Of a stretch of 32,000 nt of DNA, positions 1-31,572 are shown piece after piece. The DNA is taken from NCBI GenBank assembly GCA_023898505.1, contig CP060226.1, positions 538,152-570,151 on the forward strand, written 5' to 3'. Below the pieces are notes generated by a model. It ran no database searches. It worked only from the letters and a program-made list of their open reading frames with translations, and was not told the origin of the DNA. The first letter of the stretch is position 1. Each line of letters begins with the position of its first letter. The DNA is from Candidatus Peribacteria bacterium (GTDB lineage Bacteria; Patescibacteriota; Gracilibacteria; BD1-5; UBA6164). The position numbers and the translations under genes are program-made.

Positions 1-1
1 T

Positions 2-610
2 GAAGAATGAAAACATATGCTTTGAAAAATTGTCAAACAAATAAATAGTGAATGAAAAATATTAATAAGTGACTTCGATTACTTTAAAGATATTTGTGAT
101 AACCATAAATATTTATACCGTAAAAATAGAGTAATAGATAGTTATGATTATACAGAAGAGTTTTGAACTCCTCTAGATGAAATAGTGAATTCTGCTATTA
201 TAAATAGTATATTAAGTGATTATAGTGAAACATTATACAATCTAGAACAAATTATAAGTTTATGAAAGACAAATGAAGACAACACTTTTTATTATCTAGA
301 TATATCTAATAAAGAAGAAAAAGAAAATATTGAATGAATATCTTTCAATGAAAATAATTGAGATATTTTCAAAAACTGAGAAAAGATTTGAAATATAAGT
401 CCTAGTCTTCAAGAATATAAATTTTTTAAATATTTATATGAAAACAAATGAAAATTAAAAACATATGAAGATATTTTTAAAGAATTTAAAGAATGAAAGA
501 CAGAAAAAACTGAAAGTGAATACTTAAGAGATATAAAAAATAGAATTAAACAAAAAGAAGTAAAGAGTTTAATTAAAAATACTCCAAAAATAGGATATTC
601 AATACCATAA
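2..610 (+). CDS. Hypothetical protein, 5'-partial; the C-terminus resembles an OmpR/PhoB-type winged-helix DNA-binding domain
   Basis: The frame starting at position 2 is open to TAA at 608-610 with many in-frame TGA and no TAA or TAG. The C-terminal sequence YLYENKGKLKTYEDIF...LRDIKNRIKQK...IKNTPKIGYSI resembles trans_reg_C. Confidence 0.6.
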
Positions 611-692
611 CTTTACCATAACTTTTTAAAACCCTTTTAAACTACATACCATTACTTTAAGGCTGACTTGAAAGCCAAGTTGAATAATATTA

Positions 693-727
693 AGACTGTA
701 ATTACAAAACAAAACAGTCTTTTTTTA
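693..727 (+). terminator. Rho-independent terminator
   Basis: The stem agactgt (693-699) pairs with acagtct (714-720) and is followed by a T-run at 721-727. Confidence 0.55.
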
Positions 728-756
728 TTCTGCATAAATTCAAAAGACAAAATAAA

Positions 757-1404
757 ATGTTTCTTAATAGTAAGAATTATCCTTGCAAGGAATTTAATAC
801 TTATTCTTATATGGATAAAGAAGCAAAACAAAAATACTTAGAAAAAAACTCTATATATTTTATTGAAAACACTTTATTTAATTCACTTTCTGTTGAAGAA
901 ATATCAGACTTTGTAAGTCCTTTACATAAAGAATACAAAATACTTGATAAAGAAATAAAAAGTGAAATAAAGAAAATTCAAAATAAATATAAAAACTTAG
1001 ATGAACTTGAAAAGTATTTTATAGAACTACTAGTTAAACTAGAAAATTGATGAGATAGATTAGAAGAGCTAGAAGATACATTAAAAGCCTTTAATACTCA
1101 TTTATATACTAGATTGCCTAGTAATAAATCATATAATAAAGAGTTTAAGAAAATCAATATAAATGATATCCCAATAACTCAAGTTATATGAAAATATATT
1201 AAACTTCCTGATAATTTAAACAGGAATATAAAATGTCCTTTACACAACGAAAGAACTTGAAGTTTTAAGATATATAAAGATACAAATAGCTTTTATTGTT
1301 TTTGATGTTGAAAAGGATGAGGTTCAATAAATTTCATTTCTGAAATAGAGAATATAAGCACAAAAGAAGCTTTTAAAAGATTTATAGAAATGTTTAATTT
1401 ATAG
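757..1404 (+). CDS. CHC2 zinc-finger (DnaG-type primase zinc-finger) protein
   Basis: With TGA read as Gly the C-terminus is IKCPLHNERTGSFKIYKDTNSFYCFGCGKGGGSINFI. Three TGA codons (1303, 1309, 1318) sit exactly at the Gly positions of the conserved CFGCG.GG motif. The stop is TAG at 1402-1404. Confidence 0.8.
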
Positions 1405-1462
1405 AAAAACATTATACAAAATAGTATTCTTGTGAATTTCTTTTCTTACAAGGAGTTTATTA

Positions 1463-2716
1463 GTGTGCCATTTTTATAAATTAACTTACTATTTAAATAA
1501 AAATAAAATGGAGTTTTCCAACATAGATAAACTAGAAAAAAAGATTTCTAGAGAAGATAAATTTTTAGATGACTTAGCTATAAAACTAGAAGATGTAAAA
1601 GAAACTTATATTTACATTAAAAGTTTAGCTAAATATTATTGGGTAGAAGCTAAATTATTCTTTTCTCCTAATGATGTTCAAAATAATACTTTACTATCAA
1701 ATAAAGAGCTAAAATTAGTAAGGCAATATTGATTAATATCTACTTATGATAATCTAGTATATAAAAAAGGATGAAAAGACTGATGTTATAACTTGCTTGA
1801 TGAAAATAAAATATTAAAACCATCTAATAATCCTATACTAGATAAGAATATAGATACATTAATATCCAATGTATGCTGATATAAACAAGAAAATATAGAT
1901 TATTTACATAAATCTATTTTATATAAATATATCAATTTAAACGACTTCACTATCCCCGCAGTTGTATTGTATGGCAAATGATGAAGTGGAAAATGAACTT
2001 TGATGTCATTATTAGAAACCATATTTTGTAAAGATAATGTATTATCTAATTTATGACAAAGAGACCTTTCTTGATTTGATGTGTATAGATGATGAAAACT
2101 AGTAGTAGAATTTGCAGAAATAGCAACTAATAACACTCATAGCGATATTTGAATATTAAACAAACTAAAAAATATAATATGAGCCTGAGAAATAACAATA
2201 AATGAAAAATGAGTGAGACAATACCAAATAGACAATATTGCTTGGTTTTTTATTTCATCTAATTCAAATAAGCCTTTACAACTAGATGATAAAGATAAGG
2301 GTAATAGAAGATTTACGATTATTAAATCTAATTCAGCTTTAGAAAATTGAAAAGAAATAAATGAAGCCGTAAGAGATAAAAAAATTGTATCAAATTATTT
2401 AGCTTGGCTTTATGAAAAATTTCCTGAAGTTTTAGAGTATAGGAACTTAATAGCCTTAGATAATGAAGATAAAAGAGATTTAGAAGAAAGAAGTCAAAGT
2501 GAAGCAAATCAATTCTGGGAATGGTTAGAGGATAATTTCCCTGACTATAAAGGTAAAAAAAGAAAAACAGATATAGAAAGTATGATAAATATGTTTTGTA
2601 TAGAAAACTGAGTAGAAGAAAAAGAGTTTTTAAAATATTTTTGGTCTCACTCAAAATATCCTAAAAAGAAAATCAGAATATGAGCTGATACTTACTATTG
2701 AGTAATAATAGAATAA
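1463..2716 (+). CDS. D5/P4-family primase-associated helicase (P-loop NTPase, SF3-like)
   Basis: A GTG start at 1463 lies 7 nt after AAGGAG; an alternative ATG is at 1508. The Walker A motif YGKGGSGKGT has TGA at 1979, 1982 and 1994 as Gly. Downstream, RRFTII resembles D5/P4 C-terminal domains. The stop is TAA at 2714-2716. Confidence 0.8.
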
Positions 2717-2722
2717 ATCTAT

Positions 2723-2782
2723 TAGAACTCTTAGAACATAGAACAATTAAACCTCATAGCTAAAGGATGTTCTAGTGTTCTA
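2723..2782. promoter_or_regulatory. Cluster of TAGAAC iterons (three direct and two inverted copies); candidate operator or origin
   Basis: TAGAAC occurs at 2723-2728, 2732-2737 and 2739-2744. GTTCTA occurs at 2769-2774 and 2777-2782. The cluster lies in the gap between the helicase gene and the HTH module. Confidence 0.5.
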
Positions 2783-2867
2783 TACGTTCCCTTCAAAAAT
2801 AAGGAGTAATTAACCTTATTATTATATATCAAAAACTTAGTACTAAGTCATAATTAATAAAAAATTT

Positions 2868-3011
2868 ATGACAAAAAAAGATTATTCAAACGAATTAAAA
2901 TACTTAGATAAATATGAAGTTGATGAAGAAAAAAAGATAAGATTTATAGAAAACTTATACAAATTAATAAATATAAATTTCAATAATTTCATAGAAAATA
3001 ATTGACAATAA
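2868..3011 (+). CDS. Small hypothetical protein (47 aa)
   Basis: An ATG at 2868 opens a frame that runs to TAA at 3009-3011 with one in-frame TGA. I recognise no domain. Confidence 0.3.
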
Positions 3012-3060
3012 TTATTCTAAGATTATATTATTTATAATTAACAACTAATATATAAGTAAT

Positions 3061-3264
3061 ATGAGAGTAGAAATAAACCTTTGGGAGCTAATGGGTAAGA
3101 ATAAAATGACAGCTTTAGAGTTGTCTTCTCTTACCTGAATTTCTCCTATTCAAATTTCAAAAATTAAAAATTGAAAAACAACAAAAATAGAACTACAAAC
3201 CATAGCAAAACTTTTAGAAGCTTTTGAATGTAGTCCTAATGAATTAATAAAAATAATTAAATAA
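3061..3264 (+). CDS. XRE/Cro-like helix-turn-helix transcriptional regulator (67 aa)
   Basis: The translation MRVEINLWELMGKNKMTALELSSLTGISPIQISKIKNGKTTKIELQTIAKLLEAFECSPNELIKII matches a short HTH_XRE protein. TGA falls at plausible Gly positions. Confidence 0.75.
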
Positions 3265-3276
3265 CTTTCAAAAAAT

Positions 3277-4941
3277 ATGAACAAAACAGCAGTAATATAT
3301 TGTAGAGTGTCTACAGTTAAACAAGAAAATAATTGAGATAGTTTAAACTCACAAGAAAAAGCTTGTAGAAACTATTGTAAAAATAATGATATACAAGTAC
3401 TTTGAGTTTTTAAAGAAGCCTTTAGCTGAAAAACTAAGAGTAGACCTGTTTTCACAGAAGCTATCAATAATGCTAAAGAAAATGATGTGAATTACTTTGT
3501 AATATTTGATATTGATAGATTTTCTAGAGAATGATATTGAGCTTATTCTGATTTAAAAGAAGACCTATACAATAATAAAATAGAGCTTAGAGATAGTAAA
3601 AACATTATTCAAGGTAACAACCTAGCAGTTAAAAATGATATTGTTGATATGGAACAATATAAATGGAATAGAGAAAATTCTAGTGAATATGCAGAGGTTA
3701 TGATTGCAACCCAAGCACAAATAGAATGAAAGAAGATTATCCAAAGAACAATACCAAGAGAAATAGAATTAGAGCAATTATGATACCAAGTTAGAGCCTC
3801 TAATTATTGATACGAAAACAAAAAAGAAAGAACTATACATTGAAAAGTAAGTATACAATCTAAACATCCTATAGAATGAGATTTTTTAATAGAAATGTTT
3901 GAAGCTAGAGCAAAATGATATTTAAGTGATAAAGAAATAGTAGAAAACTTAGTATTAAAATGATGTAAAAAAAGAAGCTGAAAAATTATGGATGTAAAAT
4001 ATATGCAAGAACTTATTAAAAAGCCTATATATGCAGGAATTATATGTACTAAATGGACTTGAAATAATCCTATTAGAACAGCTTATAAATGATTAGTAGA
4101 TATTAAGACTTGGAATAAAGCTAATAGATGAAAAATAGAAATTGTAGAAATAGATGATAAAGAAGTAAAAATAGAATTTAATAACTGAAAAGAAAAACAA
4201 ATTAATAAACCCATAATAGAAAGAAGAAAAAATTATAATTCAAATTATTTTTATTCTAAGGTTTTAAAGTGTCCTCATTGTTGAGGATACTTAACCTGAA
4301 ATGCTTCTAAATCTAGAGATGGTAGCATACACCCATATTATCAATGTAGATGAAAATGATGAGCTAAACATCCTAATTACAGCATAAGACAAAAGGAAGC
4401 ACATAAAACTATTAATGATATATTTAAAGAAATTAATATAAGAGATAATGCTTTCAATCTATATGAAGAATTATCTAAAAGAATTTTTAATGAAAAGAAA
4501 ACAGAGCTAAAAAATAATACTAAAAGTTATGATGAACAGCTTAAAGAATTAGATAAAAAAGAAAGTGAAATATTAGATAATATAGATAAAGTAATAAACT
4601 ATCCTCAAATACTAGAAAAGAAAAATAAAGAACTAGAAGAAATAAAATCACTTAAATATAAACTAGAGCTTAAAAGGAATGAAAAAGATAATACTTCAAG
4701 TTTAGATAAGTTTCTATATTATTCAAAACAAGTCATCACACACATAGATAAATTAGCTATACAAAAGGAAGAACCTGAAATAATCAATCTAGTTTTTGAT
4801 ATAGTTTATGATTGAAAAATAGAATATCAAAATATAAAAAGTCACACACAAGACTTTAGTAGTTTTTTCTCTCAACAAAGCCATCAAAAAAATCCTCAAA
4901 ACGAGGATTTAGTTGGTTTTCTTAAATGGCAGCCCCACTAG
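3277..4941 (+). CDS. Large serine recombinase (integrase)
   Basis: The N-terminus MNKTAVIYCRVSTVKQ is the resolvase catalytic motif. A zinc ribbon KCPHCGGYLTG...YYQCRGKGG follows. The frame is open from 3277 to TAG at 4939-4941 with about 23 in-frame TGA (hand count). Confidence 0.85.
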
Positions 4942-5001
4942 GAGTCGAACCTAGCACGCAGGATTTGGAGTCCTGAATTATAGCCGATTAACTATGGGGC
5001 T
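4927..5001 (-). tRNA. trnW: tRNA-Trp (anticodon CCA)
   Basis: I folded the cloverleaf by hand. The acceptor stem is AGCCCCA/TGGGGCT, the anticodon arm is CAGGA-CTCCAAA-TCCTG, the T-arm is CTAGG-TTCGACT-CCTAG, the discriminator is G, and CCA is encoded. Confidence 0.85.
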
Positions 5002-7140: not shown

Positions 7141-7287
7141 GGCGATCCCGAGTACTCGGGACAGGAATGCCTTTATGAATATACATCTGTTCCCAAAAAC
7201 TTGGGATTCCCAGATATATTTCTGTCATTCCGTACTTGATACGGAATCATTATTTATGATCCTGAAACCAGTTCAGGATGACCGTCA
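7141..7287. repeat. Hairpin-repeat cluster including a family A unit (7223-7282)
   Basis: The unit is tgtcattccgtacttgatacggaatca, a spacer, then gatcctgaaaccagttcaggatgac. Upstream hairpins are tcccgagtactcggga and ttcccaaaaacttggga. The cluster lies between the S1 gene and rpsB. Confidence 0.8.
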
Positions 7288-7291
7288 AATA

Positions 7292-8524
7292 TTATTTTTC
7301 TTCAGTTGAAGCTTCTTCTGTCTTTTTCTTTTTTGTTTCTTTCTTTGCTGCTGCTACTTCTTCATCAATCTTATCTTCTTGAGATTTTTCTTTCTTTACC
7401 TTTGGCTTTTCCTCTGCTGGCTTTTCTGGAGCTTCTTGAAGAGCTTTAAGTGAAAGACCGATTCTCTTTTTATCTGGTTCAAAGTTGATAATCTTTGCTT
7501 CTACTTCTTCTCCTACTTTCACAAAATCTCTGATATCCTTTACAACTCCGTGAGAAATCTCAGACAAGTGAATCAGTCCTTGAATCCCTCCTTCTAGATC
7601 CATAAAGGCACCAAATTGAGAAATTCTTGAAATTGGAGCTTTGATAGTATCACCAAGTTTGTATTTTCTTGCCAATACTTCCCATGGGTTTTCTTTGAGT
7701 CTCTTCATAGAAAGAGAAATTTTATCTCCTTCAAGTCCGATAACTTTTACTTTTACATTCATCCCCACTTTTGCAAATTTTGATGGATCATGTACATGTC
7801 CCCAATCGATCTCAGATACGTGAACAAGTCCTTCAAGACCATTAAAGGTAACGAAAAGACCGTATGACAAGATACCACTTACTACACCTTCTACGACATC
7901 ACCTTCTTTTAAAGTCTGAAGTGCCTTTTCTCTTGATTCTTCGATTGCAGCTTTTTCAGAGAAGATAATTTTCTTCCCAACTTCATCTACATTGATAACA
8001 CGAACCTTAAATGCTTCACCAACCAAACCTTGAAGGTGTTCAAGGATTTTTTCTGGGTCAGCTCCCTCAACTCTTGGATAGTGAAGAGGAGTCAGTTGTG
8101 AAACTGGGATAAACCCTTTCAGTCCATCGATATCCACAAGAAGACCTCATTTATTTGCTTCGGTTGGTCTCACAGTAATCACCTCAGAAGAATCAAAGTA
8201 TTTACTCAAGTTTGTCAGACTCTTAATCTGATTTGCTCTTTTCAGAGACAAGATAAGGAGTCCTCTATCAATACTATCACCAAGTACCATAACATCGATT
8301 GGCTGACCAGCAGCTAATTCTCCTAATTCAACAGTATTTCCAAGTTCTTTACTAACAACAATTCCAGTAAACTGATTGTTTACATTTACGAGAATATTTT
8401 TCTTCTCGATTTTGATGATGCTCCCAGAAATCACTTCCCCTTCTTTTGGGTACTTAATCTCCGGCGATGCTTTAAACAGCTCTTCAAACAGAGCCATATC
8501 ATCCTGTTTTTGTGCAACAGTCAT
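7292..8524 (-). CDS. rpsA: S1 RNA-binding domain protein (30S ribosomal protein S1-like, about 4 S1 domains)
   Basis: Track ORFs 8147-8524 and 7292-8137 share a frame and are joined by one TGA (8147-8149). This gives ...TEANKGGLLVDIDGLKGFIPVSQL, the conserved KGG of an S1 domain. Repeated GxVxxxxxxGxFV motifs are present. Confidence 0.9.
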
Positions 8525-8669: not shown

Positions 8670-8724
8670 GGTATCCCTTTCTGTCCTCCGGACATCTTTC
8701 CCTTAAGCCTAAGGGCAAGAAATA
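8670..8724. repeat. Double-hairpin repeat, family C
   Basis: The sequence gtatccctttctgtcctccggacatctttcccttaagcctaagggcaagaaata nearly matches 27131-27186 and is related to 26559-26616. Confidence 0.8.
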
Positions 8725-11211: not shown

Positions 11212-13197
11212 TTACTTCTTCAATAAATTTACAAATGCCTCACTTGGGAGACTTACCCTACCAAACTGCTTCATCTTTTTCTTTCACTTTTTCTGTTTTT
11301 CAAGGAGCTTTCTCTTACGACTTATATCCCCTCCATAGAGTTTTGCGGTTACGTCTTTTCTGAGGGCCGATATATCTTCACGAGCTACGATCTTTCACCC
11401 AACTGCTGCCTGTATCTTGATCGCAAAGAGCGCTCTTGGCACCACTTCTTTCAGTTTTGCACAAACTTTTCCTCCAACATAGTGCGCCTGCTCACGATGA
11501 CAGATAAAACTAAGAGCATCGACTTTCTCATCAGCAATCAGGATATCAAGTTTCACCATATCATCTTCTTTAAACTTGATAAATTCATAGTTCATCGATG
11601 CATATCCAGAACTCAGTGATTTTATCTCATCATAAAAATCTCCTATGAGTTCATTCATCGGAAGTTCATACACAAGCATCACACGCTCACTATCAATAAA
11701 CTGCTGATTTTTAAAAATTCCGCGGCGTTCTTGAGATAACTGCATAAGTGTTCCGACATATTCTGTCGGAGTAATAACCTCTACTTTTGCGATTGGTTCT
11801 TCGATACTCTGGTACTTTTCTCTTGCCGGGAGATCTTCAGGATTTGAGACATATGCATAGGTAAATACAGAATGTCATCCCGTACTTGATACGGGATCAT
11901 TATTTGTACTTCTACTTTTTCATGATTCTGAATCCGCCGAGTTCTCGGGGCGCGCAAGTTCAGAATGACAGAGTTCAGGTTTAAACCTTGAATACTCACT
12001 CGTCTTATCTCCGATAAACTTAACACGATAGGTTACCTGTGGGGCGGTCATAATCACATCCATATCAAACTCTCTGAACAAACGTTCTTTGACAATATCG
12101 AGATGCAATAACCCAAGAAAACCACACCTATACCCATGTCCCAGTGCTGGAGAAACCGATGATTCAATACTGAGTGCCGAATCATTGAGCACGAGTTTTT
12201 CTACGGCATCTTTCAATTGTGGGTACTCAGAACTATCCATCGGAAATATACCCGCAAAGATAAATGGCTTTGCCTCACTAAATCCAGAGATAGGTTTCGC
12301 ATTTTCTGGTTTTTCTTTTGGTCAGAGTGTATTTGCTGGTTTCCAAAGAGTATCTCCAACTTTTGCGTGTTCCAAGGTTTTCAAACCCGTTACTACATAG
12401 CCTACCGAACCGTTTTCTATGATACCATTGGATGTATAGCGAGGAGCAAAGTACCCAACATCAAGCGCCTCTATCTTTTTCCCAGTATGAAGAAAGTGCA
12501 GCATATCCCCTTTACGAATCTCTCACTGAAATACCTTTACATACGACACTACTCCACGATATGAATCATACTGACTATCAAATACCAAAGCTTTCAGTTC
12601 ATCATCCTGACTATTCACTATTCACTGTTCACTCTTCTCTTTATTATATACCTTTGGCTTCCTCACTCTTTCAATCACCGCATCAAGTACCATATCTACA
12701 TTTTGACCCGTTTTTGCAGAAATTGGGATAATTTCATCTTCGCTACATCCAAGCAAATTGATAATTTCTTCACTGACTCTTGGGATATCTGCTGCTGGAA
12801 GATCAATCTTATTTAATACTGGGATGATATCCAGATCATTTTCGATCGCCATGTAGACATTAGAAAGCGTCTGTGCCTCAATCCCCTGCGTCGCATCTAC
12901 AACTAATAGAGCTCCTTCAACAGAAGCCAGGCTGCGAGACACTTCGTACTGAAAATCTACATGACCCGGAGTATCAATAATATTGAACTCATAGCCCTTC
13001 CATTGCATACGTACCGGTTGCAATTTAATCGTAATTCCGCGTTCCTGCTCAAGCTCCATCGTATCGAGCATCTGACCATTTTTCATCTCACGCTTATCCA
13101 GTGTTCCTGTGATTTCTAGGAACCTGTCAGCCAAAGTTGATTTCCCGTGATCTATGTGCGCAATAATACAAAAATTTCTAATCTTTCCGAGTTCCAT
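11212..13197 (-). CDS. lepA: Translation elongation factor 4 (LepA), with an in-frame repeat insertion
   Basis: The N-terminus [20 protein letters not shown] is a GTPase G1 motif, and the C-terminus [27 protein letters not shown] is a LepA hallmark. Five track fragments share one frame and are joined only by TGA. Confidence 0.92.
11873..11970. repeat. Family A double-hairpin element inside the lepA coding sequence
   Basis: The sequence tgtcatcccgtacttgatacgggatca...catgattctgaa[tccgccgagttctcggggcgcgcaag]ttcagaatgaca has the same architecture and orientation as 20079-20155. Confidence 0.85.
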
Positions 13198-13942: not shown

Positions 13943-13969
13943 AGAAGCTCCGTACGGAGCTTCTTTTTT
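13943..13969. terminator. Bidirectional rho-independent terminator between convergent genes
   Basis: The stem agaagctccg / cggagcttct has a 2-nt loop (ta) and is followed by a T-run. Confidence 0.7.
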
Positions 13970-15434
13970 ATCGAACCATCACCCAGACAGATCCCCCCAC
14001 CCCTGACGAAATCCCATATGAAGATGCGAGATCTCCTTTTGCAAAACCATGTGTAGTATTGTTTTGATAATTGTTAGCCCAATAATTCCAACGACTCACT
14101 AGAGAATCACAGTTACCCGCTCTACAGCCATGTGCATCTGAAACTCTATATACTGCTATCTCTTCTGTAGAATTAATACAATCTGAGGTACCCAAATCTA
14201 TACCCCCATATGTACTGTCTCTTCGATTTGTAATCAATGACTCTTTATAGGTAGCATAATAAAACCAATACTTTCTTAACCCATTATCATAGGTGTAGTA
14301 GGCTTCATTCTGAATGCATGTTTGTGGAGATATTCAGGTAGACTCAAAAGCACGCGATTGAATAAATCAATTTGGCACAAAAAATCCATAGTACTTCGTT
14401 GTATCTCCATCTATCCCCATAGATACTTCTGTAAACATCAGTTCAGAGGCATCAAGTGAATAATCATATCCTGGGTTTAGGTTCGTAGGAGTATCTCCAA
14501 TAACTGCATCGAAGAAAGTAGCACTGGGATAACTACCATCTGTTACTCATATGAGCATCCAACCGCCTCAGTCTGTAGTCATATCACAGTATACGGAAGT
14601 TTCTGTACTTCCATCTGGGTAAATAGTGTATATATCGGACCCTAAGCTTTTTCCCGCATATAATATATCAAGACAACTTGTAGGATTACTCATATGTGCA
14701 GTGATGCTCAGTACATACAACGTACTTCAAGTTCCCACTGTACTTTTCACGTCTGTGAAATTTGCCGTATAGGTGTCTGTAGTAAGGGCTATGTCAAGGT
14801 AACCTGAGTTTGTTACCGTAGTTACCTCTTGTATCGGAGCATTGGTTCAGGACTGGGTGAGGATACCAAGCTTATGTCCATTTACCGTTGAGTATCTGTT
14901 TGTGTAGTCTGTCGCTGCATGGGCTTGTGGGATGAAAGCTCCCCCTAGCCATGATATCTCCTCACCCCAGCCCTCTCCTTTGAGAGGAGAGGGAGTTATA
15001 GTTCCCCCTTCTCCCACAAGGGAGAGGGGGCTAGGGGGTGAGGGTATTTGTGTAAGAAGGTTTTCCTCTTCTTCAAGAAATGCCATCAATTGGAAGTATT
15101 TCTTATCACTCGTGAGGTAGTAGGAAAAGTAGGTGGAGTCTTTTGGGTCTTTTCCTCCTTTGGTAAAGTCTATCGTTTCAAGAACTCCTTCTCCAGCATA
15201 GCCTTGGTAGGCAATAGTCGTTCCATTAGACTTTACTTCTACGTAGTCATCTGGAAGAGGGAGGTCTTTTTCTGTTCTATAGAGTTCAAGTCCATCATGG
15301 AGTGCCGTAAGTTGAGAGATACGATTCGTATCTCTCGTTCAAGCGAGGTAGGAGCTATATGAGACAAAGCCTACGGTAGAGAGGATACCGAGGATTACGA
15401 CGACTACGATAAGTTCGACTAATGTAAACGCCAG
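13968..15434 (-). CDS. Type IV pilin-like protein with a C-terminal fibrinogen-related domain (FReD); the start codon is uncertain
   Basis: The N-terminus AFTLVELIVVVVILGILSTVGFV is a class III signal/pilin helix. The C-terminal sequence SCLDILYAGKSLGSDIYTIYPDGSTETSVYCDMTTDGGGWMLI is the fibrinogen C-domain signature, with TGA at 14578-14580 as a Gly in DGGGW. No ATG, GTG or TTG lies upstream in frame, so I placed the 5' end at CTG 15432-15434. Confidence 0.75.
14941..15045. repeat. Family B nested palindromic element inside the pilin-like coding sequence
   Basis: ccccctagcc (14941-14950) pairs with ggctaggggg (15030-15039). Inner hairpins are ccctctcctttgagaggagaggg and cccccttctcccacaagggagaggggg. 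The element is related to the intergenic copy at 5073-5110. Confidence 0.85.
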
Positions 15435-15440
15435 CTTGTC

Positions 15441-15500
15441 TGGTCCCGAATGCTCGGGAAGGGTGAATCCTTTACTCCTTCCGTTCGTAGGAAAGGATGT
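15441..15500. repeat. Double-hairpin repeat in the 5' region of the pilin-like gene
   Basis: The hairpins are gtcccgaatgctcgggaa and tcctttactccttccgttcgtaggaaagga. Confidence 0.6.
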
Positions 15501-19651: not shown

Positions 19652-20713
19652 CTATGTACCTTTTCCCTTTTCCATTCTTCCCTTTCGTCTTTTCTCTTTT
19701 ATCTTTCATCTTTCATCTATTTCCAATTCTTTCACTACCTCTATCCACTCTTCAATTCCCAATTCTTCTCCCCTCACAGTATCCGAAATACTCAGTTTTT
19801 CAAATATCACTAGTATTTTCCCCTTGTCATATCCACTATTTAATAAGTTCTTCAGTAGCTTTTTTCTCGGTTCACGAAAACCCTGTTTAATAATTTCTAA
19901 AAATACTCCATCATCGATATCTCTATAATTATCATGAGTTATAAAGTGAAGAACGATAGATTCTACCTTTGGCGCAGGATAAAAGTGCTCTTTCGGCACA
20001 ACACAAACTTCCCTCACAAAACACTTTTTTGCGATAAAAAGTCAGAGGACTGAAGAGCGTATTTTTTTATCACTTCTGTGTCATCCCGTACTTGATACGG
20101 GATGATAATTTGTACCTTTACATTTTCATGATTCTGAAACAAGTTCAGAATGACAAATAGATCTCTGTCAGCTTAAAATTTTCCTCCCCACATCCTCCTG
20201 CATCATAATCGCCATCTCTTGAGGAGATGTAGAAACTTCATAGAGAAAGTGCCTAAGAATCGGAGAAGTGATATAATACGGGATATTTGCGATGACTGAG
20301 TAATTAATTTGTCATTCTGAACTTGATTCAGAATCATTAATAGTATCTTTACTCTTTCATAGATTCCTGCCTCCGCAGGAATGACATACGTGAAATATCG
20401 GTTCATACTTAAGGACATCGATATGCTCGATGTTAACATTCAGTCCTTCAATTTGCAATTCTCCTGTCTGTATTCTCTGCTCAAGGATGGTGATCATATC
20501 TGGATCAAGCTCCACGAGAGTCAAAGATTGTGGTATTTGCGTCAGGAGTTTTTCGGTGAGTGCCCCATACCCTGGACCTACTTCCACGATATTTTTTCCA
20601 TCTACCTCAATAGCTGTTGCAATATTTTCTAGACTTCCTTCATCTACAAGAAAATTTTGTCCCAAAGATTTTTTTGCGTGGAGTTTATATTTTTGTATAC
20701 TTTGTGGAAGCAT
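19652..20713 (-). CDS. rsmA: 16S rRNA (adenine1518/1519-N6)-dimethyltransferase RsmA/KsgA, with two in-frame repeat insertions
   Basis: Supporting motifs are KKSLGQNFLVD, VEVGPGYGALTEKL, ANIPYYITSPIL and FYPAPKVESIVL. I chose the ATG at 20711-20713. The frame reads through several TGA to TAG at 19652-19654. Confidence 0.88.
20079..20155. repeat. Family A double-hairpin element inside the rsmA coding sequence
   Basis: The sequence tgtcatcccgtacttgatacgggatgataatttgtacctttacattttcatgattctgaaacaagttcagaatgaca is near-identical in its arms to the lepA copy. Confidence 0.85.
20310..20386. repeat. Family A variant double-hairpin element inside the rsmA coding sequence
   Basis: The sequence is tgtcattctgaacttgattcagaatcattaatagtatctttactctttcatagattcctgcctccgcaggaatgaca. 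Confidence 0.8.
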
Positions 20714-26558: not shown

Positions 26559-26616
26559 GTTCCCTTTTCCTCGCGATATTGGGAGGTCTTCCCCTTACTT
26601 CTAAGGGAAAGAACGG
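26559..26616. repeat. Family C double-hairpin repeat upstream of rplK
   Basis: The sequence is agttcccttttcctcgcgatattgggaggtcttccccttacttctaagggaaagaacgg. Confidence 0.7.
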
Positions 26617-27130: not shown

Positions 27131-27186
27131 TATCCCTTTCTGGTCTCTCGACCATCTTTCCCTTACCTCTAAGGGAAAGAGTAATG
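27131..27186. repeat. Family C double-hairpin repeat
   Basis: The sequence tatccctttctggtctctcgaccatctttcccttacctctaagggaaagagtaatg is a near copy of 8670-8724. Confidence 0.8.
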
Positions 27187-27416: not shown

Positions 27417-28367
27417 TTACAAGATTAAATTCTCATTTGTAAACCATTGATTTCAAATTTTCTTCGCTATAATCTTTCCTCTGTTTACCAATTGTCTTCC
27501 ATAATCTTCTTTAAACCCTTTTTGGACCATCAGGTCAGCTACTGGTACAAGCTCATAAGATTTATAATGAGATAAAATCAAATAATCCAAACTTTCAAAT
27601 AAATTTCACGATATAGTTTTCTCCAAACTACTGAAATCTCATTTATTTACCCAGTCATCTTTTGGTATATTTAGTGGAAAATAGTCATATAATCCTATTT
27701 CTCATTTTTCCAATCAAGTAAAATATCTTTCTTTTTCTGATTCTACTCACTTAATAATTATATTTGGATATCAATGACAAAGTAATACGTAGTTTATAAG
27801 TACCCTTCATACTCTTCCGTTCCCATCCTCAAATGGATGTATAGATTCAAATAATACATGCAGTTTAGATAAAGAAGAAACTATATTGTCTTCTGTAAAG
27901 TCAAGAATATTTACATATGATATGAAATAATCTAAGCAAAGCAAAACCATACTTCATACAGGAGGTTTAATTCTTACTTTGTTAATCATAATATCTCATA
28001 GCCTATAGTCTCACGGTTTTTTCGATTCTTGTCATCTAAACATCAGAGAATGAATGGTTTTTATATCTGAGTGTTTTAACTCAAACTTTTCCTTGTTTAT
28101 ATATTTTTGGTATCCAAACTCATAGACTAATGAGGCAGAATCAAAATACCCTAGAATTTCCTCTGAGTTTTTAGAATATTTTTTATTTGAAATAGTATTT
28201 TGTATTTCTTTTTTATTTGCAAAGTACCCCTCTATCATAATAGAGTTCCTCGTTTCCTCTTCAAATAGGTACAACCATTCTTTATTCTTTACATTTGGCT
28301 TTGTAAGTGATCAAAACTTCGATAATAATTCTAATCTCCACTTAATAAGTTTTCAAATATTTTTCAT
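27417..28367 (-). CDS. Fic-domain protein (AMPylase family), class II with an N-terminal inhibitory motif
   Basis: The Fic motif HPFEDGNGRVGR lies at 27804-27839, with TGA as Gly. SIMIEG at 28227-28244 fits (S/T)xxxE(G/N). The frame runs from ATG at 28365-28367 to TAA at 27417-27419. Confidence 0.85.
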
Positions 28368-28379
28368 AATTCTAATTTT

Positions 28380-28595
28380 TTATAGATTAAACTCTGTCAT
28401 TTTTCAGTCAACTAATTCATAACATATGTAATTTTCGGGATCTCAGCTATAACCTAAGTGTTCAAATTCTTTTGTTTCTCTTAATCTTTGAAATGCATCC
28501 TCAGGGTTTTCTCATTCTATAATTGCTAATCAACTAGTAGAATCTAAATTCTCAAACTTTTCAGCATAATAAGTTAAAAATATATATTTTTTCAT
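28380..28595 (-). CDS. Small hypothetical protein (71 aa)
   Basis: The frame is open from ATG to TAA with four in-frame TGA, and it ends 12 nt upstream of the Fic start. I recognise no domain. Confidence 0.5.
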
Positions 28596-28621
28596 GGTAT
28601 TTTAGTTAAAATTTAAAGTTT

Positions 28622-29050
28622 TTATAAATAATTGCCAACCCAACTGGCATAATCTTCTATAAGTTGGTGATTTTCTGATTCTTTATCAATAGCCTTAAGC
28701 CGACTTAGTCAAATAGTAAACTTTCTTCTATCTCCTTTTCTTCTTACTTTCACAAATAATTCACTCTCATAATATAAGAGCTCATCAAACTCGATAAAAC
28801 TGAAAGTATCAGTATATGATGGCCTTGTTTTCTTTAACTTCTCATATTCTTCTGGATCTCAATATCAAAAAACATATTTTTCTTCCCAATCAAAGTCATC
28901 TCTTCAAGTAAGTAAACAAGGTTTTTCTATGTTATTAGTTATGTATTTTAGATACTTTTGTAAATTCCCTTTATTTACTCAAATATCTTTTTCCTCTTGC
29001 TTTCACAATATTTTTTTAAATCTTTCTATTTCTTTTTCAAATTCATCCAT
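28622..29050 (-). CDS. Hypothetical protein (142 aa)
   Basis: The translation, verified codon by codon, is MDEFEKEIERFKK...ASWVGNYL. An AGGAGG lies upstream of the start. I recognise no domain. Confidence 0.6.
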
Positions 29051-29077
29051 AATAATTCTAGTTAAAAAATAAAATAA

Positions 29078-31243
29078 TTACCTCCTTATAATCTTATACC
29101 TTCAAGATTTCTCTAACTTGTTATAAAAAGTCTGCCTTTTCTTGAATAACTTATCAAAATAATCTATATTTTTATCATGATAGTCATATATAACTTGTTT
29201 TTTCTTAGTCCTTTGGATTCTTCATATATATTGAATCAATTTTCACTCAAAAGAAAAAGGATAAACTAAAAACAAACAATCTAGCTCTCATATATCAAGT
29301 CACTCTCAAATTAACTGTCATGTAGATATAAGAACCTGAAAGTTTCATGATTTTATTTGCTGAAATTTTAGTTTTCTTTTTCAAATACCATCATCTCAAG
29401 TCAGAGTAATTGTTTCATGCTGATTTTTTAAATACATATTTATAAGCATAACATGGTCTTTTCTCTCAGTAAGAACAATTATTTTACGATTTTTTCAGAT
29501 TTCTTTGATTAAATCTTCTACAATCATAGTATTTCTATCAGTATCGTATACGAGAACTTTTGAAACCATTTCATAATTATCTATTTTATAATCAAATGGA
29601 ACAAAAAGGTTTGTTTCTTTGATATTTATATGATTTTTGATTGAACTTACTTTTTTAAAATCTCTATCAATAGTAGATATTATATCTCAAATATAACAAT
29701 ATATTAATTTTTCATCATTGTTTTTTCTCTTTGGAGTAGCTGTAAAACCATAAATATACTTAGAATTGAAGTTAACGACTGCTTCACGAAAGGTTTTCGC
29801 AGGTATATGATGGCATTCATCTATTATAATAAGTCCAAATTTATTCTTTATTTCACTCAAATCATCTTTTTTTACTATAGTCTGCATCATAGCTATTGTA
29901 ATTCAAGACTTTCAAACCTTATATTTTCAATTTCAAACCTGTCATATATCTTTTTTTATAATTCAAAGGAATGACTCTATTCTCTCAATCCATTGGTCAT
30001 ATAATTCTCTACGATGTACAATAATAAGAGCAGGTTGTTTTTTCCTTGCTATAAATTCAAGTCACATCACTGTTTTACCAGCTCAAGGAGGTGCTACAAT
30101 TATTCATGAATCCTCTTGTTCTATTTCTAAAAGTACTTTTTCTTGGTAATCATATAAATCAATGCTTGAACTATATTCTATTTCTTCAAATGTATTCCTA
30201 TAATCCTTGATAGTATATGTGGTATTATTTTTCTTTAAAAAGTCTTCTAACTGCTTCAAAAATCATATAGGAATAGCAATGTCTAAATCACTTTCATCAA
30301 TAACTTTGAAATACTTTTCAGTTTTATAGGTACTTTTTCATAATCTTTTCTTTACTAAATAGTCAGAATTAAAAAAATTTAAACTATCTTTTAAAAATTT
30401 TATAAGATTCGGTGTAAGATTTTCTCTTTTTATGATGATCTGGTTACGAATAATAATTTCAAATCAATTTATATTGTTACTTATTATAGGTGTTTCTATA
30501 TTTTTATCATCACATACTAAGACAGAATAAATCTCATCTAATTCTTTAACTGAAATTTTCTCTATGTTCTCTAAAAATTCCCACTGATTTTCTATAACAG
30601 AAGCATCTAATACATTTATAAAACAAGAATTATCTTGTTTTAGTGATTCTCACTGAAAAGGTAGAGCAATAAGATTACCAAATCATTTTCAGGTTAGATA
30701 ATCTTGATTTGGGAATAATCTATCAAAACTAAATTCTTTTTCAAAAATACTTACATTTAAAGATTTTTTAAGTAATTCAAAAAGTATTTTTCTACTTTTT
30801 ATGGCAGGATATTTACTTTCAAAGAATATCCATACATGTCATCCATTTCAAGAACGACTTCTTTCTATATAAGTAGGTATATCATAAACTTCACAAACCT
30901 TAATGAGATTCTTGCATTCCTCTAACCAATTTTTCTTATCAAAATCAGCAACTATAAAATTTGAGTTATTATTAGCTAAAAGTGGATAGATTCATAATGT
31001 TTTACCTCAAAGTAAATGACTGTATATTGCTTTATCTGTAAGAGCTAATAAAGTTTTATTCTCAAAATTACTAATATTTCATCATTTAGCTCTATGAGCT
31101 GAAAATTCATTCCAGTCAAAATCATAAGCTGGCATATATCCACTGTTTCAGTTTTTCTCCCAACGAATAGCATATATATCCTCTCTTCATAGAAAAAGAG
31201 ATCTGTATAGTTTAATTTTCTCTTTGGATATAAAATCAGGCAT
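29078..31243 (-). CDS. Fusion protein with an N-terminal AEP/prim-pol-like domain and a C-terminal SF2 DEAH-box helicase (721 aa)
   Basis: AEP-like motifs are IVADFD, SRSGNGGHVWIFF and FDRLFP...GNLIALPF. Helicase motifs are IIVAPPGAGKT, IIIDECHH, FTATP, ISTGQLIGEGLDIGELDCLFL and QYIGRIQR. Many of the motif Gly residues are TGA codons. Confidence 0.85.
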
Positions 31244-31572
31244 AGAAAAATATAGTTAAAAAACTGTCACGATTATACTATCTTATTAAAACGTGACAAA
31301 CTTATTTTTTAGATTTTTCACAAAAAAATAACCAACTTTTTTATATAATTTTGTTGGAAATACGCTACAAAATAAAGTCCTACTACATGCAAATGAGGTA
31401 GGTTTTTTATTTTTTAAGTTATTATTACGGAGAATCGAATGGAGAAAAGGAACTGAAACGAAAGTATGAAATATCACGATGAGTAAGAGTGATGTGAATC
31501 ACTGGAGTCAGTTATCTTTTGGATGCCCGACTTGCGGCAATTCTCCTTCTGGAGTAACAAAAGTAATCATCC

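Follow-up and report, generated by a model that had tools for sequence, protein, structure and literature searches.

A 32,000-nt stretch of DNA (GCA_023898505.1, contig CP060226.1, positions 538,152 to 570,151, forward strand; here called the window, with all coordinates given as window positions) carries, within its lepA (EF4) gene, an inverted pair of TGTC-tagged hairpins that keeps the reading frame open. The explanation that we favor, at a probability of roughly three in four, is that this insert is a non-autonomous TGTC-hairpin dimer that was mobilized via single-stranded DNA (ssDNA), probably with an Ssn-like nuclease, has been kept, like its relatives, in permissive loops, and is translated through TGA codons. 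[quoted passage not shown]

A hairpin dimer in frame in lepA and its further copies

An earlier note, made from the sequence alone, had placed a double-hairpin palindrome in frame in lepA, and we confirmed this element, here called c2, at 11873 to 11970. The note had also described the block as free of TAA and TAG, as preserving the frame, and as holding two TGA sense codons; our frame table agrees, showing two TGA codons, no more, and neither TAA nor TAG in the lepA frame (minus strand). The note would have counted a lack of related copies elsewhere in the genome as a refutation; three more elements lie in the window, one intergenic and two in ksgA. The features concerned are as follows.

11212 to 13197, minus strand: lepA (EF4), from its translation; 661 codons under code 25, insert included
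11873 to 11970, minus strand: c2, two TGTC-tagged hairpins in inverted orientation, together 98 nt, keeping the lepA frame
11873 to 11900, plus strand: c2 hairpin 1, tgtc-ATCCCGTA-cttga-TACGGGAT-cat, an exact match to TGTCATYCYGWACTTGATWCRGRAT
11922 to 11970, minus strand: c2 hairpin 2, tgtc-ATTCTGAA-(26-nt loop)-TTCAGAAT-cat
11934 to 11954, no strand assigned: nested GC-rich 21-nt insertion CCGCCGAGTTCTCGGGGCGCG in the loop of c2 hairpin 2, from the comparison of c2 with c3
7223 to 7283, no strand assigned: c1, short dimer with a 15-nt spacer, intergenic
19652 to 20713, minus strand: ksgA/rsmA, 353 codons, with two in-frame copies; the Pfam RrnaAD match falls in two stretches
20079 to 20155, minus strand: c3, a 77-nt copy that keeps the ksgA frame, residues 187 to 212, CHSELVSESGKCKGTNYHPVSSTGGH
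20310 to 20386, minus strand: c4, a 77-nt copy that keeps the ksgA frame, residues 110 to 135, CHSCGGRNLGKSKDTINDSESSSEGQ

When only TAA and TAG are taken as stops, the longest open reading frames (ORFs) in the window have 1315, 1277, 725, and 674 codons; with standard-code stops, all long ORFs are interrupted and none is longer than 284 codons. In-frame TGA codons of lepA fall on conserved glycines (VFQ*EI against VFxGEI, AAVG*K against AAVGGK), and KQKK*KKKM aligns to KQKEGKKRM of solved LepA structures, again with TGA on a conserved Gly. Given these positions, that the only tRNA-Trp in the window has the anticodon CCA, and that the best protein matches of the window LepA are "Candidatus Gracilibacteria" EF4 proteins, the data fit a host that reads TGA as Gly (genetic code 25). 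The window LepA is 71 to 85% identical to Gracilibacteria EF4 proteins, the majority of which are 627 aa long, and it matches Aquifex LepA (2ywe) with an E value of 1.7e-186. The closest relative found was L121 (GCA_028696815.1), in which the gene order lepA - S1 - rpsB - tsf is syntenic with the window.

On the plus strand, c2 reads TGTCAT-CCCGTA-CTTGA-TACGGG-ATCAT...TCATG-ATTCTGAA-(26-nt loop)-TTCAGAAT-GACA, and, together with one adjacent base, it encodes LepA residues 410 to 442 (CHSEL...STGGH). Folding of a 131-nt stretch containing c2, compared with shuffled sequences, gave z = -2.2 as RNA and -2.9 as DNA. The 25-nt hairpin pattern has six matches in the window at three or fewer mismatches, against 0.00 expected (100 shuffles), and a repeat search grouped four 60-nt copies that share 67 to 92% identity. 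All four elements are inverted pairs whose stems vary by compensating changes (CCCGTA/TACGGG, TCCGTA/TACGGA, TCTGAA/TTCAGA, TTCCTGC/GCAGGAA). Their spacers measure 15 to 31 nt, and those of c2, c3, and c4 can be aligned; the consensus of these three, ATGAAANNGTARARRTACWAWTWATSAT, had 0 matches in the metagenome scan, so this spacer subfamily was found only in the window. The intergenic copy, c1, lies 9 nt 3' of the stop codon of the S1 gene (7292 to 7294) and upstream of the rpsB start (7110).

The nested insertion in c2 hairpin 2 adds seven codons (ARPENSA) and forms a small hairpin of its own (CCGAG TT CTCGG); its boundaries are approximate, having been set by comparing the 26-nt loop of c2 with the 5-nt ACAAG loop of c3. 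Its core, CCGAGTTCTCGG, has seven window matches at two or fewer mismatches, against 0.64 expected. Similar sequences were seen as a GATCCCGAGTACTCGGGAC hairpin upstream of rpsB (7141 to 7160) and, in the closest relative, as cgtcATCCCGagctCGGGATtcc after rpsB (8439 to 8460 of that locus). In dimers from unrelated phyla (L007, L034, L054, L068, L071, L089), the loop of the second hairpin also often holds GC-rich nested insertions of 15 to 40 nt. The hairpin loop itself may be a hot spot for insertion or repair.

Most orthologues lack the inserts

A length of 627 aa, against 661 in the window, is found in most of the best 120 LepA matches, and the sampled 627-aa orthologues lack the insert, the point that the earlier note had proposed to check by an orthologue alignment. 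The closest orthologue (P0001, from L121; 85% identity) has FLPEVFELNGQTFTY at the site; in the alignment it reads SEYSRFLPEVFELNGQTFTYSY, where the window has 33 aa followed by SVFTYAY. The FKPEL and SV that flank the insert are native LepA residues. The gain is thus smaller than the "about 40" residues first proposed: LepA is longer by a net 34 aa (661 versus 627), 33 codons of which are the element itself (98 nt plus one base). The insert lies within a stretch that HMMER leaves unaligned, corresponding to Aquifex LepA residues 377 to 387.

The ksgA copies give the same picture. KsgA orthologues of ~270 aa lack both blocks, reading DVLKYxPxFxxYSVIANIPYY and DVGDKILGKGKNKSSVLSLF at these positions, and the Pfam and PDB KsgA matches of the window protein split at both insert sites. 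On this comparison of sequences, c2 and the two ksgA copies are insertions at variable loops rather than native sequence. When metagenomes were scanned with LepA, just three close Gracilibacteria loci (65 to 73%) came up, none with the insert, and no empty site from the same species was found. The intergenic copy and the DNA-level similarity of the copies led us to reject both an intein and a loop that is simply particular to the lineage.

The occupied frame contains TGA codons

The three genic copies are 98, 77, and 77 nt long, and one adjacent base brings them to 33, 26, and 26 codons. All three share the same orientation and frame, TGT CAT ... TCA TGA AAx ... GGA TGA CAx, in which there are two TGA codons, so that the standard code would close it; the copies are open in the host frame only because TGA is a sense codon (Gly). 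Out of six possible frames, each copy has just one or two open with the standard code, against three to five with code 25. The grand average of hydropathy of the used frame (-1.32, -0.70, and -1.21) is the lowest among the open frames in each genic copy. The frames that are open under the standard code range from -0.63 to +0.45 and read VILNL... or VIPYL....

Peptides encoded by intragenic elements of this kind in Rickettsia conorii include SFLRKQES...LDSRFRGND and WIPWSNHGMT (PMC3733652). In these peptides, the ATGACA end is translated in the frame AAT GAC or ATG ACA and never through TGA. In-frame copies in a Treponema 815-aa ORF, a Hyunsoonleella ORF, and a Daviesbacteria ORF, all under the standard code, likewise use AAT GAC or ATG ACA. 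We take the Hyunsoonleella ORF to resemble MetRS and the Daviesbacteria ORF to resemble MurB, from reading their sequences. By a crude comparison, hairpins lie in long open frames in ~10 of 117 cases in other genomes versus three of the four elements here (Fisher P = 0.004).

For annotators of code-25 genomes, these repeats yield "CHSEL...," "VILNL...," and "ILKQVQDD" peptides and split domain matches, as with the KsgA Pfam match.

Relation to known palindromic elements

Judged by its sequence features, the element is a member of the published CGTC/TGTC-tagged REP class and is not lineage specific. Members of this class carry a CGTC or TGTC tag and an 8- to 9-bp stem starting with AT (Di Nocera, De Gregorio & Rocco 2013; PMC3733652), with a 4- to 5-nt loop and a 3-nt tail; they occur mostly as inverted dimers, and no transposase is known for them (PMC3733652). 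In the window, TGTC starts seven of the eight hairpins, and the second hairpin of c1 starts with GGTC. The stems ATCCCGTA/TACGGGAT, ATTCTGAA/TTCAGAAT, ATTCCGTA/TACGGAAT, and ATTCCTGC/GCAGGAAT agree with the published stem, being 8 bp long and starting with AT, and the loops are cttga, cttgt, ctggt, and ggag, except in c2 hairpin 2, where the nested insertion extends the loop to 26 nt. The window dimers have spacers of 15 to 31 nt, and published dimers have spacers of ~20 to 100 bp that are often conserved. The tails in the window are cat, gat, and cta versus the published consensus CCA; copies from other phyla have CCA or CTC tails.

The window elements thus resemble CGTC-tagged REPs in their TGTC tag, their 8-bp stem starting with AT, their 4- to 5-nt loop, their arrangement as inverted dimers with conserved spacers, the position of c1 just after the 3' end of an ORF, and their in-frame genic dimers. 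They differ from them in their Gracilibacteria-like CPR host with code 25, in their CAT, GAT, and CTA tails, and in the single 21-nt nested insertion. In addition, a host frame with two TGA codons, as found here, is impossible in the published hosts, which in the 2013 survey were Proteobacteria, Chlorobi, Bacteroidetes, Spirochaetes, and Thermotogae only (PMC3733652). In-frame intragenic dimers of the class encode 20 to 37 aa and sometimes occur twice per gene (PMC3733652).

The class has been equated with Neisseria dRS3 and with the Rickettsia palindromic elements (RPEs) RPE-6 and RPE-4 of R. conorii (PMC3733652), which makes the parallel with Rickettsia in the earlier note closer than had been supposed; this link rests on the literature assignment of RPE-4 and RPE-6 to CGTC-4 and CGTC-1 (PMC3733652). 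As in RPEs generally, the window has a palindromic repeat in frame in intact ORFs whose orthologues lack the insert. RPE-1, said to have been described by Ogata et al. in 2000 and 2002, is reportedly a palindromic repeat of ~100 to 150 bp that interrupts housekeeping genes without breaking their frame, where the protein fold can accept it. The window elements share its palindromy, its in-frame placement in housekeeping genes, and its fold-compatible sites; they differ in that RPE-1 is longer and forms a separate sequence family, and membership of the insert peptides in RPE-1 is not supported. An NCBIfam scan with the three insert peptides, at E values up to 10, returned no family; we assume that NCBIfam includes an RPE-1 domain model, which the scan output does not show.

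The same hairpin also connects the window to the Ssn nucleases. The 94-aa GIY-YIG protein SsnA binds and cuts the NTS hairpin CGTCATTCCCGCGMAVGCGGGAATCYRG as ssDNA only, and on one strand only (Chenal et al. 2025; PMC11893778). In many phyla, ssn genes have related motifs, termed SRM, on their flanks, and this NTS-ssnA-NTS arrangement is like that of insertion sequences (PMC11893778); SRM-rich genomes include Rickettsia and Wolbachia (PMC11893778). The treatment of the hairpin as a private "family A" in the earlier note was therefore too narrow, given that it belongs to a pan-bacterial class tied to GIY-YIG Ssn nucleases (PMC11893778). Like NTS and SRM, the window hairpins have a GTCAT head, a palindromic stem, an ATC tail, and a spread over many phyla, and an identical hairpin has GIY-YIG neighbors in other genomes. 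Unlike NTS, they do not match the strict SRM string, and no ssn gene was seen in the available sequence of the lineage. NTS is genic in 2% of cases in N. meningitidis (PMC11893778), versus three of the four window copies.

Classical MITEs (transposable elements of miniature size with inverted repeats), such as Correia/NEMIS, RUP, and the Coxiella QMITEs, are reported to lie at times in frame within ORFs (PMC5896051, PMC10969869). They are like the window elements in being short, non-coding, and multi-copy with terminal inverted repeats. The window elements are unlike them in having hairpins as ends, a GIY-YIG ssDNA nuclease as the associated protein, no cognate DDE transposase, and no target-site duplication. 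We rejected a classical MITE on these grounds: the ends are inverted, but a direct repeat of the flanking bases is missing from all four copies, and no transposase with such ends was seen.

A full-text literature search yielded no paper that links Gracilibacteria or Absconditabacteria with such repeats, or RPEs with GIY-YIG nucleases. The suggestion that no such element had been described in a TGA-recoded lineage therefore stands as far as this search goes, although the same class was already on record in frame in bacteria with the standard code. The element class and its in-frame insertion in standard-code bacteria are thus already known, and in-frame copies occur in standard-code CPR as well; what is new is the code-25 Gracilibacteria host, the TGA-containing hydrophilic frame, and the repeated colonization of the same LepA and KsgA loops.

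The hairpin in other bacteria and its GIY-YIG neighbors

An exact scan for TGTCATYCYGWACTTGATWCRGRAT, with one genome per GTDB species, found it in at least 120 contigs. The matches come from Flavobacteriaceae isolates, Treponema, Elusimicrobia, Dehalococcoidia, Campylobacterota, Melainabacteria, and many CPR groups, and among the matches listed are four Gracilibacteria metagenome-assembled genomes (MAGs). At most of the loci listed, an inverted copy ending in ATGACA follows 10 to 60 nt after the hairpin. The degenerate stem pairs were complementary in 127, 131, and 134 of 134 hairpins from other genomes (pair 1: CG 71, TA 56, TG 4, CA 3; pair 2: TA 94, CG 37, TG 2, CA 1; pair 3: AT 120, TA 14). 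Since G-T pairs are no commoner than A-C pairs in these stems, so that G-T wobble is not favored, the covariation points to a constraint on the DNA hairpin rather than on RNA. A search of Rfam at gathering and at permissive thresholds returned only tRNAs and chance-level matches, and we set aside a known RNA family, intron, or ribozyme for this reason.

Among the matches listed, an ORF of ~95 aa with a GIY-YIG domain (PF01541; E = 1.7e-13 and 1.9e-18) adjoins the hairpin in 8 of 120 loci, and in two of them, L100 and L043, the GIY-YIG gene lies exactly between two inverted hairpins. Such compact units of hairpin, GIY-YIG gene, and inverted hairpin measure ~400 bp and were seen in L100 (586 to 1010 of the reverse complement), L043 (5319 to 5710), L109, and L106; their hosts are Chloroflexota, Patescibacteria, Moraniibacteriota, and a MAG labeled Actinomycetota, and they carry the same 25-nt hairpin as the window. 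This organization fits a role of the compact units as autonomous partners of the short dimers. Only six hairpin stretches were found in 2.9 million viral contigs (IMG/VR), against the at least 120 contigs of species-representative genomes, and phages were accordingly discarded as an obvious reservoir.

The same LepA and KsgA loops are occupied in other Gracilibacteria

In L122, whose LepA (P0069) is 71% identical to that of the window, the LepA loop concerned carries a dimer of another sequence, TGTCACTGCGAGGAG...GCAATGACA (also given as TGTCACTGCGAGG...GCAATGACA), whose frame likewise passes through a TGA. In L210 (GCA_041659565.1), whose KsgA (P0121) is 48% identical, a pair of almost identical TGTCATTGCGAG...GCAATGACA dimers fills precisely those ksgA positions that are occupied in the window, in the same frame, TGT CAT...CAA TGA CAA. 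An element of the CGTC-1 family is also listed at the N terminus of the R. conorii dimethyladenosine transferase (KsgA) (PMC3733652).

Inserts of at least 12 aa are present in 15 of 120 LepA homologues and in 24 of 120 KsgA homologues. As read from LepA alignment columns 190 to 235 and from the KsgA alignment, all internal inserts among these sequences fall at two hot spots per protein, and most hot-spot inserts belong to another palindrome-like family that encodes "SPL..GEG" or "PSPLEEKE" peptides.

An in-frame double hairpin of a second kind is also found in the window, at 14957 to 15045 (minus strand) within the ORF at 13968 to 15500; it reads CCCCCTCTCCCTTGTGGGAGAAGGGGG ... CCCTCTCCTCTCAAAGGAGAGGG and encodes PSPPSPLSLVGEGGTITPSPLKGEGWGEE, and peptides like this one ("SPL..GEG"/"PSPLEEKE") occupy the LepA and KsgA hot spots in other Gracilibacteria. 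By eye, we take the N terminus of this ORF, FTLVELIVVVVILGILS, to resemble a type IV pilin.

As a proxy for the window KsgA, an AlphaFold model of the doubly inserted P0121 was used (mean predicted local distance difference test [pLDDT] score, 73.8; predicted template-modeling [pTM] score, 0.71). The only long segments with pLDDT below 50 are residues 110 to 139 and 189 to 223, which are the inserts, and the model matches KsgA crystal structures with target-normalized TM-scores of 0.76 to 0.85.

Origin of the inserts and competing explanations

In the explanation that we favor, the copies would have arrived by hairpin- or ssDNA-based mobilization, probably with an Ssn-like nuclease acting in trans, and only insertions that left the frame intact and landed in permissive surface loops would have survived. 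Translation would give 26 to 33 extra residues that are hydrophilic and probably disordered, with EF4 and KsgA presumably staying functional. The reassignment of TGA to Gly would widen the set of tolerated frames and open the most hydrophilic of them.

Several observations weigh against this account or its parts. The SRM string HGTCWYN(0-2)YYVSBRHN(0-5)WNVSBRGN(0-2)RNCYNB has 0 matches on either strand of the window; c2 hairpin 1 fits it through RNC and fails at Y (ATCATT), and the window copies depart from it solely in the 3' "YNB." A tblastn search (code 25) gave no Ssn/GIY-YIG gene in the window, in ~160 kb of Gracilibacteria loci, or in L210, and inspection of the flanks of all four copies gave no target-site duplication. 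The element lengths are of the form 3n+2, so that one extra base or a compensating indel is needed to keep the frame. The frame preference is drawn from only five "CH...TGA" cases in two genomes, and the LepA case of L122 lies in another frame. The model of the P0069 LepA homologue was too poor to use (pLDDT 50). Lastly, gene conversion that homogenized old insertions, rather than repeated insertion, could be why the same loops are occupied again and again.

This last possibility can be widened to a scenario in which an ancient insertion or unstable loop was overwritten by gene conversion from an abundant hairpin family, or precisely deleted. It would account for different subfamilies at exactly the same ksgA and lepA loops in genomes that share 48 to 71% protein identity, for the "SPL..GEG" repeat families at the same hot spots, and for the near identity of the two L210 copies. 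However, most orthologues, including the closest (85%), are insert free, which would require many independent losses, and the filtering of random insertions by permissive loops gives the same pattern; we therefore regard this scenario as unlikely. An insert that is never translated, owing to removal from the mRNA, ribosomal bypass, or DNA excision in expressing cells, seems very improbable to us. Ribosomal bypass occurs in T4 gene 60 and at the yeast mitochondrial "byp" elements, mobile inserts that are GC-rich, palindromic, and bypassed are known, and the element does form two stable hairpins. Yet neither bypass nor excision requires an open frame, whereas three genic copies in the window, two in L210, and one in L122 keep the frame without TAA or TAG, and no Rfam intron or ribozyme was matched. 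Moreover, inserts of the same class in Rickettsia lie in frame in likely functional ORFs (PMC3733652), and R. conorii proteins decorated with RPE-1 have been reported to be expressed in vivo (PMC3733652).

Decay of lepA and ksgA, or their dispensability in a reduced genome, would turn the inserts into neutral damage. This finds little credit with us: across its 661 codons, LepA retains every GTPase motif and is 85% identical to its closest orthologue, the motifs of KsgA do not vary, no insert falls in a conserved block, and both ORFs are otherwise intact and highly conserved. The idea draws on the facts that both genes are non-essential in E. coli in the laboratory and that CPR genomes are reduced. 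Even more remote is an assembly artifact in which a repeat-induced misjoin placed the element in lepA. The sequence is probably a metagenome assembly, in which repeats can create chimeras, but lepA sequence continues without a break on either side, in one frame and in the order seen in orthologues, the same holds twice in ksgA, and analogous inserts are present in the independent assemblies L122/L123 and L210.

Translated, mobilized hairpin dimers remain our preferred explanation; a broader proposal is tentative and, in our estimate, less likely than not. In recoded Gracilibacteria, palindromic repeats (CGTC/SRM dimers and at least one other family, "SPL..GEG") may recurrently add in-frame segments to housekeeping proteins, at the same two loops of LepA and the same two of KsgA in different genomes; TGA recoding would remove the stops in ATGACA and TCATGA and unlock the most hydrophilic frame, so that the change of code would have altered the interaction between selfish repeats and genes. 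If the frame bias holds genome-wide, stop-codon reassignment would change which insertions of selfish DNA a proteome tolerates, and this would account for some of the differences in length among conserved Gracilibacteria proteins.

Other features of the window

A third family of small palindromes, CATCTTTCCCTTAnnnnCTAAGGGAAAGA, is found at 8693 to 8720, 26585 to 26612, and 27153 to 27180, adjoining tRNA-His and tRNA-Glu genes and an ORF read as rplK. These palindromes may be terminators or another repeat family.

Two stretches of low GC content are also present. The first, an island at 1 to 5001 (21 to 26% GC), encodes a CHC2 primase zinc-finger protein, a DUF5906/VapE-like protein, and a large serine recombinase, and it abuts the tRNA-Trp(CCA) gene at 4927 to 5001; it is probably an integrated mobile element or a prophage remnant. 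The second, at 27417 to 31255, encodes a Fic-domain protein and a 721-aa protein in which the archaeo-eukaryotic primase (AEP) domain of TOTE conflict systems (PF22548; E = 1.4e-81) is fused to a helicase, making this stretch a candidate defense locus.

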